Virus record (IMG/VR): IMGVR_UViG_3300028048_001412
Span: 45,858 to 109,857 of that record
DNA: 64,000 nt
Reading direction: 5' to 3' (one strand)
Source: a virus
Lineage: Duplodnaviria; Heunggongvirae; Uroviricota; Caudoviricetes
A model generated the notes under the pieces. That model did not search any database, had not been told where the DNA came from, and worked only from the letters and a program-made list of their open reading frames with translations. Positions 8,792 to 43,928 of this stretch are shown in pieces. How positions within the stretch are numbered: the stretch's first letter is position 1; each line of letters opens with the position of its first letter. A program made the position numbers and the translations under genes.

Positions 8792-11485
8792 TTACATGTC
8801 AAAACCATCTTCATCTTCAAATTCAATAGAAGGATTTTCTGAACTTTCATCATTTAAATCAAAGTCGAAATCTTCTTCATTTCCTTCTTTTTCATCATTT
8901 GAAAAATCGAATTCATTTTCTTTATTGTTTTCTTCAAAATCAAATTCTCCATCATTATTTGTTTCCTCTTCTTTTGTTTCATCATCTTCTAAATCAAATC
9001 CGTCATTAGATTCTTCATTGTTATTATCTTCATTATCATCTCCAAAATCAAATATATTATCTGAAGAATTATCTTCATTATTATTAGAATCTAAATCATC
9101 TGAATTATCATCATCTCCGAAATCAAAATCATTATCTTCGGAATCATTTGAATCATTTTCTACTTCATCGTCAAAATCTTCCATATCTTTATGTTTTGAA
9201 GAAGAATTATCATCAAATTGAACTATATTATCTTTATTTCCGTATAATTCAGCTTTAACTTTTTCTATATTCTTTACATAAGGTTTTCCTAATACTGACA
9301 TATCAGGCATTTCAACACCCATCTTATAAAATTCTTTAGCTAAAGCTTCAATTATATTATAAGAATCTTCATCATCAAGACAAACTCCTAATGTTCTAGC
9401 ATATTGAACTTTTGCTTCACCTAATTTAATAGCCGCATCACCTGCATTTATAAGAGTTTTAGTAAAATCTTTAATTTCACTTTCATCAAATACTTGTTTC
9501 ATTAAATCCATAGATCTTAATACTAATCTAAATGGAGTTAAATCTCTAGTAGTCTTATCTATATAATTAGTTAATCTTTGTGCTATTAAATATACATATA
9601 TTCCAGATGATCTTAATTTAGTAACTGCTCTTGCTAACATTGCATCCCATTCTTTAATATAATCTACTTTATCTTTTTTAGATTCTACTTGGGCATTTTC
9701 TTCATCTCCCCACTCTTTAATATTTCCTTTAAGAGTTGGAACCTCATCTATGAAACAGAATATTGTTGGTAATTTATGACCTTTCTTTCTCCATCCTTGT
9801 ATATTAGCTGTATTTTCAGTAGCAAACATTTCTTGTCTTCTAGTTCCTTCATCAATAAGAGTTTTAATCATATTGAAAGTTTCTTCACCGGTTCTTGGAT
9901 TATCTCCTTGAATCAATCTACATACATTTGGATGTAATGCAAATTTATTAAACATTGCATCACCTTTAGGATCAACTAATATAATTTGAACCATTTCAGG
10001 AAGATAGAATGCTAATAATTGAATTACTAATGACATAAAGAACCAAGATTTACCTGAGCCTGGACCACCTGCAAATGTTCCTGAATACATTTCTGCACCT
10101 TTGGCTCCCATTTCATATATAATAGGTTCACCAATTGAATCTACACCTATAATTAATGGAATATCTTTACTTCTTGTAAATAATTCCTTAACTACTGGAT
10201 GATTTATAATATCACCTATTAATATTGCATCTTTATTAGGTTTAGTTATTATTACATTGAAATGATCACCATCTAATTCTGCTGAACAAGAAATTTTATT
10301 TTTATCTTTTGCATTATTTCCAGTAAATTTTCTTTTTTCATCTACTAATAAATCTACTATATCAGAAGAATAATTATTCATTGTATCTTCTAATTGTTTT
10401 GCAGTTACTTTATTACCAATTGGTTTCTTTATTGTTAAGTAAGCACACATTACAGAATCTTTTAATTCAAGTAATTCTATACCTTTCTTAATTACTTCAG
10501 ATTCATCTTTTCCATAAATATCTGCAAATACTCTTCCTATAATAGCAAACATTCTTGTCCATTTATCAGAACCTGTTTCATAAGAAGTCATTTTAGCATA
10601 ATTTGGATTAAATGCTGGGAATATTTTATGTAATGAATCATATAAAGATGCAGTATTTATAATTCCTTTTGGCATTTCTAAATTATCTACATCTGGTTTA
10701 CCTTTATCTTCTTCTCCATCATCCCAAACGAAATTAGAAGATGAATCATTTGAATTATTATCATCTCCTAATAAACTATCTAAATCAGAATCAAATGAAC
10801 TATTATTATCTGAAGATGAATTAGAATCATCTCCTAATATATCATTCATAATTTCATCAAATGATTGATTATAATCATTAGCTAAAGTTACTACTTCATT
10901 TAATTCTTCATTATCATCTTTTACTTCTTTTTCTACTTGTTTATCTAAATCTTCTACTGTGGCTGGTTTATAACAATTTGCAAGTATTATTCCTAATGCT
11001 GATCCTGAAATTGCACAGTCAAAAATCATACCTATTATTCCCATTTGTCCAATGAAATAAAAGGTATTATCTCCTACATATCCAAATATAAAACATACTA
11101 AAAATGCGACGAATAAACACCCACAAGTAATAAGTAAATGTTTTAAAGCATTTATTGATTCATCTGCACTTTGTTGGCCTAATATTTTAAATATTTCTAC
11201 TAAAGCAGATATACCACCTATAATTATTAAACCACAAGTTTTAAAGAATCCTATTATGGAATAAATAATTACATCTAGAAAATCTTTAGGTTTTTCTCCA
11301 TCTGCACTTGTTGTTCCTGAATTTTGAGGTTGCATATTTGAAGCAAATGGATCATCATTTGAATCAAAAATACTTTTTGAGCCTGTTAAATTACCATCAC
11401 TTCCTGAATCATGACCCATAAAAGGATCCGAATTCAAGGAGTTAAATAAATTATCGGCTGTTTCATCTAAATAATCTCTAGCCAT
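8792..11485 (-). CDS. Membrane-anchored FtsK/SpoIIIE-family ATPase (TcpA/Tn916 ORF21-like coupling protein) with long acidic tail
   Basis: About 3 N-terminal TM helices; IPLIIGVDSIGEP; Walker A AGGPGSGKS; PEMVQIILVDPK; Walker B CFIDE; RSSGIYVYLIAQR; ~130-aa D/E-rich C-terminus. Confidence 0.88.
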   Translation of the reverse strand: MARDYLDETADNLFNSLNSDPFMGHDSGSDGNLTGSKSIFDSNDDPFASNMQPQNSGTTSADGEKPKDFLDVIIYSIIGFFKTCGLIIIGGISALVEIFKILGQQSADESINALKHLLITCGCLFVAFLVCFIFGYVGDNTFYFIGQMGIIGMIFDCAISGSALGIILANCYKPATVEDLDKQVEKEVKDDNEELNEVVTLANDYNQSFDEIMNDILGDDSNSSSDNNSSFDSDLDSLLGDDNNSNDSSSNFVWDDGEEDKGKPDVDNLEMPKGIINTASLYDSLHKIFPAFNPNYAKMTSYETGSDKWTRMFAIIGRVFADIYGKDESEVIKKGIELLELKDSVMCAYLTIKKPIGNKVTAKQLEDTMNNYSSDIVDLLVDEKRKFTGNNAKDKNKISCSAELDGDHFNVIITKPNKDAILIGDIINHPVVKELFTRSKDIPLIIGVDSIGEPIIYEMGAKGAEMYSGTFAGGPGSGKSWFFMSLVIQLLAFYLPEMVQIILVDPKGDAMFNKFALHPNVCRLIQGDNPRTGEETFNMIKTLIDEGTRRQEMFATENTANIQGWRKKGHKLPTIFCFIDEVPTLKGNIKEWGDEENAQVESKKDKVDYIKEWDAMLARAVTKLRSSGIYVYLIAQRLTNYIDKTTRDLTPFRLVLRSMDLMKQVFDESEIKDFTKTLINAGDAAIKLGEAKVQYARTLGVCLDDEDSYNIIEALAKEFYKMGVEMPDMSVLGKPYVKNIEKVKAELYGNKDNIVQFDDNSSSKHKDMEDFDDEVENDSNDSEDNDFDFGDDDNSDDLDSNNNEDNSSDNIFDFGDDNEDNNNEESNDGFDLEDDETKEEETNNDGEFDFEENNKENEFDFSNDEKEGNEEDFDFDLNDESSENPSIEFEDEDGFDM

Positions 11486-11488
11486 TAA

Positions 11489-43420: not shown

Positions 43421-43928
43421 CTATAATACCTCTATCAATTAATTTCTCATAATCTTCTTGAATTTCTCTATCTGTTATTTCATATTCTTCTAATAATTTA
43501 TAAAAATTATCCATATAAGACATATTATAATTATATCTTTCTACCATATGTTCATATGTTTTATTATCTACATCTTTATCTGATATATATTTATCAGCTT
43601 CTACTTTAAGTTTTTTATACTTTTCATGTTCTGGATAATTATCTATTAAAATCTTAAATTGAGCCATAGAAAATTCGACATTTTCATTTACAAAACTATA
43701 AAATTCAAATAAATCTAATGGTTCTTGTGCATTTGAATCAGTAGCTATATTAGAATTGTTAGAATGATAATGATTATTCATATTTACATTTTTTCTACTA
43801 TTATTAGGAATATTTCCAATTACTCCAAAATAAACTATAGTAAATATCATAAATATAAATGCTAATCCACACCATTTAAGAATTTTGTCTGTAAATTTCT
43901 CCTTTTCATTCAGCATAAAACACCTCAC
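43410..43928 (-). CDS. Bitopic membrane protein
   Basis: One N-terminal TM; first gene after box-promoter D. Confidence 0.72.
   Translation of the reverse strand: MRCFMLNEKEKFTDKILKWCGLAFIFMIFTIVYFGVIGNIPNNSRKNVNMNNHYHSNNSNIATDSNAQEPLDLFEFYSFVNENVEFSMAQFKILIDNYPEHEKYKKLKVEADKYISDKDVDNKTYEHMVERYNYNMSYMDNFYKLLEEYEITDREIQEDYEKLIDRGIIVGQ

Follow-up and report, generated by a model that had tools for sequence, protein, structure and literature searches.

Our analysis points to a block of genes at positions 8792-43928 of the DNA studied here as the probable conjugation module of a giant plasmid-like element of the pXO16 type, about 284 kb in size, from Clostridia of the ruminant gut. The stretch that we analyzed (the window) consists of 64,000 nucleotides, bases 45,858-109,857 of a single contig of 284,018 bp held as a record of IMG/VR, which we refer to as G000. 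Within the block lies the core of a type IV secretion system (T4SS) that, judging from protein homology and gene order, is a distant variant of the tip transfer system of pXO16, a plasmid of Bacillus thuringiensis sv. israelensis, and not a new class. The putative role in conjugation is read from this homology. Transfer of this relaxase-less type is rare and is known experimentally only from pXO16, a replicon of 350 kb. Compared with the literature that we searched, what is new is the breadth of the family, its occurrence on elements that are filed as viruses and resemble jumbo phages in gene content, the adjoining Tad-like pilus, a ParA-like core gene, and a conserved third ATPase.

The relationship to pXO16 appears at the protein level. 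A DNA-level search of plasmids returned no match. When the VirB4-like protein of the window was compared with the plasmid collection by tblastn, 29 plasmids were matched, all but one of them typed as non-mobilizable. The only matches covering at least 80% of the query were to ten B. thuringiensis plasmids of ~350 kb (82% coverage); weaker matches fell on plasmids of Bacillus, Paenibacillus, and a few other Bacillota and Actinomycetota. One of the plasmids, pBTHD789-1 (NC_018516.1), is a copy of pXO16, and the matching 42-kb stretch (L081) encodes proteins of 1834, 445, and 412 amino acids (aa), a VirB4-like protein, small open reading frames (ORFs), and a protein annotated as FtsK/SpoIIIE. In iterated searches and blastp, five core proteins of the window (the giant polytopic, PrgI-like, 385-aa, VirB4-like, and FtsK-like proteins) paired with genes of pBTHD789-1 in unchanged order. 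The tip locus itself spans 25 kb and 16 coding sequences, and two ATPases and a hydrolase encoded there are required for conjugation (PMC9673590). An earlier note on this DNA, made from the sequence alone, had proposed a distinct new machine. Homology and synteny of the core with a locus that has already been studied argue against that proposal (PMC9673590, PMC6199540).

Other claims of the earlier note fared better. The ORFs of three ATPases of the FtsK-HerA superfamily are present where it had placed them, all on the minus strand (Table 1), and the VirB4-like and FtsK/TcpA-type ATPases are accompanied by a PrgI-like protein and a CHAP-domain hydrolase, consistent with the proposed T4SS or conjugation module of Gram-positive type. 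The membrane ATPase of 897 aa contains an FtsK_SpoIIIE domain (PF01580 in Pfam, E = 1.4e-12). Its Walker A (GGPGSGKS at residue 473) and Walker B motifs are intact, its best sequence matches among PDB structures are EccC and FtsK, and it aligns with the FtsK/SpoIIIE protein of the pXO16 tip locus at 24% over 356 columns (blastp, E = 4e-14). For the 730-aa VirB4-like protein, searches with the single sequence gave only sub-threshold AAA_10/DUF87 matches in Pfam and a local match to TIGR02746 (TraC) at 4e-8 in the P-loop region. A family profile built from 20 members matched the VirB4 structure 4ag5 (E = 4.6e-8), with TcpA as a weak profile match, and relatives of the protein carry PF19044/PF01935. 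Alignment with the pXO16 protein extends over 595 residues (608 columns) at 28.6% identity (E = 1e-70). The gene is the best conserved of the whole element family, as is usual for VirB4 in conjugation systems.

AlphaFold2 models the core of the 430-aa protein at a pLDDT (predicted local distance difference test) of 84-94, and its soluble domain matches AlphaFold database clusters labeled "PrgI family," "TrsD," and "conjugal transfer protein" as well as VirB4 fragments (E values of 1e-5 to 1e-8). The model also resembles the N-terminal domain of TrwK/VirB4 from R388 (Z 9.2, root mean square deviation [rmsd] 4.9, 165 residues); the structure atlas gave the same lead, and the pXO16 homolog is 445 aa long. 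Together these matches lend moderate support to a VirB3/PrgI-like component, which agrees with the VirB3-like protein that had been noticed from the sequence. The gene for the 1354-aa protein precedes the core in 17 loci, and the protein is an iterated-search homolog of the 1834-aa protein of the pXO16 tip region. On its topology, position, and homology to pXO16 it is a candidate for the VirB6-like protein, a channel subunit, that the earlier note had listed; no direct match to VirB6 was found, nor any match in Pfam or NCBIfam. The 385-aa protein has its pXO16 homolog at L081:18468-19706 (412 aa), and its weak structure-atlas lead to a FlhF/ParA-like fold (TM score ~0.3) is not usable. Its neighbor, the ParA-like core protein, matched PF13614 at 2e-5, under the cut-off. 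In the direction of transcription, the genes for the 114-aa, 1354-aa, 430-aa, ParA-like, and 385-aa proteins precede the VirB4-like gene. A small ORF at the position of the 64-aa gene is also found in relatives (46-53 aa) and in pXO16.

The same arrangement recurs across a family of large elements. The order giant polytopic protein, 430-aa protein, ParA-like protein, 385-aa protein, VirB4-like protein, small ORF, and FtsK-like protein is conserved in more than 14 loci on contigs of 88-600 kb, among them ENA contigs of 175-600 kb and ten IMG/VR records of 88-268 kb. Two of these ten records (G003 and G004) have terminal overlaps and are thus circular assemblies. Scans of IMG/VR with peptide patterns taken from single proteins found none of the relatives; profiles alone succeeded. 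A whole-proteome comparison of G000 with distant relatives left as common genes the T4SS core, a GyrB/GyrA-like topoisomerase II, a ligase, a pair of MoxR and VWA proteins, and the third ATPase of 1316 aa, which is characterized by a GKG-type P-loop. One further observation concerns IMG/VR record G011 (171,259 bp), which carries the VirB4-like gene and the GKG ATPase and is classed as having inverted terminal repeats, so that some family members may be linear.

Several observations weigh against the interpretation offered here. Identity between the window core and the pXO16 proteins is low (21-29%). The ParA-like core gene has no counterpart in the pXO16 locus, and no counterpart of the CHAP hydrolase was found in the 42-kb pXO16 stretch, where TipB could not be located. 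A candidate for a VirB8-like (NTF2-fold) component was not found by sequence, and no oriT, at which no search was aimed, came to light. Furthermore, models of six relaxase families (MOBP, MOBT, MOBQ, MOBH, MOBV, and MOBF, represented by PF03432, PF02486, PF03389, TIGR03760, PF01076, and PF08751, with MOBC, MOBB, and TcpM-like relaxases not included) yielded nothing at E <= 0.01 either in G000 or in up to 11 relatives; of the 12 records covered, half reach a completeness of at least 90%. In G003, G004, and pXO16 a distance of 70-180 kb separates the third ATPase from the T4SS core, and another relative, G001, lacks it. Finally, IMG/VR files G000 among viruses, as a linear record that CheckV rates 92% complete, its gene content (24 tRNA genes, one transfer-messenger RNA [tmRNA] gene, topoisomerase II) is like that of a jumbo phage, and our tests for virion genes were sequence based (Pfam and PHROGs), which very divergent virion proteins could escape.

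If the block is a conjugation module, its parts can be assigned provisional roles. Secreted adhesin-like proteins and the Tad-like pilus would draw cells together, and the CHAP hydrolase would make an opening in the wall. The VirB4-like, PrgI-like, and polytopic proteins would assemble and power a membrane channel, with the FtsK/TcpA-type membrane ATPase serving as coupling protein and DNA pump. The DNA would be processed by an enzyme other than a recognizable relaxase. It could be argued that the T4SS-like apparatus is devoted instead to the secretion of proteins such as the nuclease, the hydrolase, and the adhesins, to contact-dependent antagonism, or to DNA release, and that it does not transfer DNA. 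A secreted non-specific endonuclease and the CHAP hydrolase are indeed encoded within the block, large secreted proteins are numerous, and none of the six relaxase families was found. Yet the nuclease, hydrolase, and adhesins bear ordinary Sec signal peptides or lipoboxes and therefore need no T4SS, the homologous locus of pXO16 is required for conjugation, and no other part of this family of mobile replicons is as well conserved as the module, as would be expected of their own transfer system. We regard dedicated protein secretion as very improbable.

In the Tcp system of the 47-kb plasmid pCW3 of Clostridium perfringens, the coupling protein TcpA acts with the VirB4-like TcpF, the VirB6-like TcpH, the hydrolase TcpG, and an atypical relaxase, TcpM. 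The window shares with pCW3 a Gram-positive T4SS that uses an FtsK-like and not a TrwB-like coupling protein, but at the sequence level the components are homologous only in the ATPase cores, and pCW3 has one FtsK-like ATPase. TraB of Streptomyces is also FtsK-like and functions without a relaxase; it acts alone, without VirB4 or a T4SS channel, whereas the window has a full VirB4-based core. In pXO16, the relaxase and oriT are still unidentified (PMC9673590). The earlier note had seen no relaxase in the block, and with respect to the six families searched this now extends to the whole replicon.

The machine could instead move double-stranded DNA (dsDNA) without any relaxase, in the manner of Streptomyces TraB and as the earlier note had suggested, with either the membrane FtsK-like protein or the 1316-aa ATPase as the dsDNA pump. 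Such a mechanism would accommodate the empty search for the six relaxase families, the fact that FtsK/TcpA-type dsDNA translocases are the nearest match for two of the three ATPases, and the ability of pXO16 to mobilize plasmids that have neither oriT nor mob as well as chromosomal stretches of at least 791 kb. However, we give it little credence. TcpA of pCW3, likewise FtsK-like, works with a relaxase, a full VirB4-based channel is present in the window, unlike in Streptomyces, and in the Walker A motif of the 1316-aa ATPase a Gly replaces the Mg-binding Ser/Thr, so that the activity of this ATPase is uncertain. Moreover, pXO16 has been described in a review as transferring single-stranded DNA by a distant T4SS like that of pCW3 (PMC6199540), which speaks against a dsDNA pump and likewise against the possible second substrate receptor of the earlier note.

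The 1316-aa ATPase deserves attention in its own right. The full-length protein has no sequence match in Pfam, PHROGs, or the PDB, and family sequence and profile searches against the PDB gave matches at chance level. Neither this protein nor the VirB4-like protein had a tblastn match among 50,697 phage records. By comparison, a profile of the central region finds at least 578 clusters at 50% identity, and the family members listed are ~640-1840 aa long, mostly 1200-1700 aa, with the domain in a central position. An AlphaFold2 model of residues 215-700, based on an alignment of 77 sequences, was of high confidence (pLDDT 93, predicted template modeling score 0.93). It is closest to TcpA of pCW3 (Z 20.5, rmsd 3.2, 250 residues), followed by FtsK (Z 19.5), EccC/EssC (Z 17-19), VirB4 (15.7), HerA (~14), and TrwB (13.8). 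On this model the protein is a member of the FtsK-HerA superfamily of the FtsK/TcpA type and not an ordinary, TrwB-type VirD4, in keeping with the earlier note. Across the 77 sequences, the P-loop Lys, the DE pair of Walker B, and a Gln are invariant. So is the Gly that follows the Lys in the P-loop (AGSRSGKG), where Ser or Thr is usual. The motor is followed by a coiled acidic linker and then by a conserved C-terminal domain, for which the structure atlas gave only weak leads, resembling leucine-rich repeats and below 0.85.

The third ATPase is also present in pXO16, as a "hypothetical protein" of 1440 aa with the P-loop AGSRSGKGV (hidden Markov model E = 1e-94), encoded ~180 kb from tip and bearing the locus tag BTF1_RS28215 in pBTHD789-1. 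Within the plasmid collection the ATPase domain matches only the ten pXO16-type plasmids, and the VirB4-like gene was present in all four IMG/VR records found by way of the third ATPase. Other members of the ATPase family sit among replication-type genes. The third ATPase thus shares a replicon with the T4SS, not one operon, and since it is remote from the core in relatives, the three ATPases do not make up a single compact apparatus, contrary to the enlarged machine that the earlier note had envisaged. It probably belongs outside the channel. Most likely it acts on the DNA of the element in the cytoplasm, whether to process, feed, or segregate it, which is the least supported step in our interpretation. 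A bolder version, which we consider unlikely, is that the ATPases with a GKG P-loop (~1300-1700 aa), kept from pXO16 to elements of the rumen, are the missing DNA-processing or DNA-feeding component of conjugation of the pXO16 type and replace the relaxosome, and that the elements may be capsid-less descendants of jumbo phages that use this machine to spread.

Given how G000 is filed, it is necessary to ask whether the element is simply a phage. A true jumbo phage with virion genes too divergent to detect could carry the T4SS-like and Tad-like modules as accessories during infection or lysogeny, where they might serve, for example, in cell-to-cell spread of phage DNA, exclusion, or remodeling of the host surface. 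Its classification and completeness in IMG/VR would fit, as would the tRNA and tmRNA genes; the topoisomerase II, ligase, NrdD, and homing endonucleases are of phage type; the majority of ORFs in the minus-strand block of 135 kb matched no family; and a recent preprint finds many envelope proteins in huge phages. Nevertheless, models for the terminase (Terminase_6N, TerL_ATPase, and Terminase_6C; PF03237, PF03354, and PF17289) found nothing in 5-10 records, including circular G003 and G004. Those for the HK97 capsid, gp23, portal, and sheath (PF05065, PF07068, PF04860, and PF04984, of which PF07068 was without a positive control) found nothing in G000 and 5-10 relatives, and the capsid family of nucleocytoplasmic large DNA viruses had no match in G000 or its relatives. 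PHROG scans of ~96 ORFs of the minus-strand arm gave no structural match, with the qualification that 56 of the ORFs were judged on the best 25 of 53 families, so that weak ones could hide. A match to the "terminase" family phrog_19299 proved to be an AAA ATPase (window 4920-6329) and not a terminase. A family of tailed phages that retains a VirB4 at 33% identity should also retain a terminase that can be detected, and the genes common to the family include no candidate for a capsid, portal, or terminase. The cultured relative, pXO16, is a plasmid for which a phage-like nature was suspected and no plaques were obtained; all of its coding sequences have one orientation (PMC6199540), as do the genes of G001, G003, and G004. 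On balance, a jumbo phage is decidedly unlikely, and a plasmid-like element remains our preferred reading.

There is a precedent for such a reassignment. The Hodors of the human gut lack TerL and were listed in huge-phage collections, but they proved to be conjugative megaplasmids (Yuan et al. 2026 preprint, PMC12934698). Like G000, they are Bacillota elements of more than 200 kb that were first filed among huge phages, and they encode VirB4, a coupling protein, a VirB6 that is hardly recognizable, and a large module of surface proteins; most Hodors lack a canonical relaxase. They differ in having Rep_3, ParABM, sortases, SecYEG, and a MOBH-like HD relaxase. The identification of our element as a Hodor was rejected on the absence of Rep_3 (PF01051), sortase (PF04203), and the MOBH-like TIGR03760 from G000-G009. 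G000 and pXO16 are both giant replicons with a phage-like look and mostly unknown genes, both have homologous VirB4-like, FtsK-like, PrgI-like, 385/412-aa, and giant polytopic proteins in the same order, and both encode an ATPase of about 1400 aa with the AGSRSGKG P-loop, which in pXO16 is far from the transfer locus. They differ in the ParA-like gene and the CHAP hydrolase, which have no detected counterpart on pXO16, and in the adjoining Tad-like cluster, 25% GC, tRNA and tmRNA genes, and two-armed layout of G000.

This layout is that of a replicon copied bidirectionally from one origin. Genes on the minus strand form an arm that runs from 250.4 kb of the contig through its ends to 102.2 kb, and the plus-strand arm occupies 102.5-250.2 kb. 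Cumulative GC skew is at its minimum at ~102 kb (window ~56.4 kb) and at its maximum at ~250 kb. The point at which the genes diverge, at window ~56,340-56,620, coincides with the skew minimum, and this region is likely the replication origin. Unlike two-armed G000, the relatives G001, G003, and G004 have every gene on one strand. These relatives also contain strand-polar words, namely GGGGTAT (141:4 in G004), GAGTTTA (206:10 in G003), and GATACAG (107:4 in G001). In G000 no strand-polar word stands out beyond an A-rich coding bias, and GGGTATT is likewise not evident.

The host of G000 is probably an anaerobic member of the gut Clostridia and not a Bacillus. The window stretch was detected in sequencing runs of bovine, sheep, and goat gut from at least ten studies, and relatives occur on contigs of metagenome-assembled genomes of Lachnospiraceae and Clostridia. 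Contigs of one RNA run contain 41% of the sampled words of the window stretch. As evidence that the module is expressed, this is suggestive only, because carry-over of DNA is possible.

The transfer block consists of 23 ORFs within the minus-strand arm, all on the minus strand and with few gaps of more than 80 bases, and at least one hydrophobic segment is predicted in 13 of them (Table 1).

Table 1. Predicted features of the transfer block, with positions in the window
Feature	Position	Strand	Remarks
FtsK/TcpA-type putative coupling ATPase, 897 aa	8792..11485	minus	four N-terminal transmembrane segments, motor domain, acidic low-complexity tail
Protein with two transmembrane segments, 64 aa	11489..11683	minus	sits between the two ATPase genes
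VirB4-like T4SS ATPase, 730 aa	11706..13898	minus	profile, TIGR02746, and pXO16 homology
Conserved soluble core protein, 385 aa	13903..15060	minus	kept in 16 loci
ParA/MinD-like (AAA_31) protein, degenerate Walker A	15064..16503	minus	phrog_164; position kept in 13 loci
PrgI/VirB3-like membrane hairpin with VirB4-N-terminal-like domain, 430 aa	16591..17883	minus	AlphaFold2 and fold matches
Giant polytopic envelope protein, 1354 aa	17910..21974	minus	signal peptide and at least five transmembrane segments
Five envelope proteins	21987..25816	minus	114 aa, three transmembrane segments; 249 aa, four transmembrane segments; 104 aa; 377 aa; 399 aa
Secreted CHAP-domain peptidoglycan hydrolase, 297 aa	25837..26730	minus	PF05257 and signal peptide
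Lipoprotein, 771 aa	26753..29068	minus	lipobox ending at residue 25; no family match
Secreted non-specific DNA/RNA endonuclease, 368 aa	31152..32258	minus	PF13930, 3e-18; signal peptide
Second ParA-like protein, 445 aa, degenerate P-loop	32260..33597	minus	phrog_164 at 1.4e-4
Soluble ATPase, 1316 aa, no transmembrane segment	34805..38755	minus	central FtsK/TcpA-like motor, residues ~215-700
Four ORFs, 643, 294, 621, and 172 aa	38764..43928	minus	three N-anchored in membrane

The five proteins that follow the giant polytopic protein in the table have no family match in Pfam or PHROGs. Among them, the 377-aa protein has a signal peptide and a transmembrane segment, the 399-aa protein is N-anchored, and the 249-aa protein has a weak homolog in G003. 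The CHAP domain is close to the limit of detection (8.6e-6, 26.6 bits against a cut-off of 26), and where the earlier note had described two types of wall hydrolase in the block, CHAP alone was detected. The secreted endonuclease has a 40%-identical homolog in G004, and part of the 643-aa protein matches short ORFs of G001 and G003.

To the left of the window, a Tad-like pilus cluster occupies contig positions 35,237-43,144 (L002:17237-18694 and L003:987-7144). It encodes a T2SSE ATPase (E = 1.5e-15), a TadZ-like AAA_31 protein, two polytopic proteins (317 and 329 aa), and three proteins with a common pilin-like N terminus. The genes around the cluster encode lipoproteins and secreted proteins, the largest of them 1973 aa long, and in G003 the cluster is likewise kept beside the T4SS genes.

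Other features of the element were noted in passing. Next to the block, at window 44024-48100 on the minus strand, is a gene for a 1358-aa protein with BspA-type leucine-rich repeats (PF13306, 8e-13), in which a crude scan showed no signal peptide. The pair formed by a MoxR-like ATPase (phrog_1297) and a DUF2201 metallopeptidase/VWA protein is at window 50964-54203 (minus strand) and is kept in G001, G003, and contig L020. An SNF2-family helicase with an inserted intein (Intein_splicing, E = 4.5e-13) is encoded on the plus strand at window 60796-63033. Elsewhere on the contig, at 250,460-270,827 (L011-L012), there is a run of ~16 ORFs of similar size (376-440 aa) without a transmembrane segment, whose mutual similarity was undetectable by blastp, phmmer, and jackhmmer.

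The transfer system of pXO16 has so far passed for an oddity of a single insect pathogen. Our findings place the same core, at the level of homology, in a ruminant-gut element that is far from pXO16 in its GC content of 25%, its tRNA genes, and its phage-type replisome, and likewise in many uncultured elements of 88-600 kb that are entered in virus databases as huge phages. Part of the "huge phage" catalog therefore probably consists of self-transmissible plasmid-like elements. In addition, the set of genes that a machine of the pXO16 type requires can now be defined by comparison, and the third FtsK-like ATPase, which is common to pXO16, is a concrete candidate for a knock-out in a laboratory-tractable strain. 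Should the proposed role of this ATPase in DNA processing or feeding prove true, it would explain how giant elements, plasmids without oriT, and hundreds of kilobases of chromosome are transferred.

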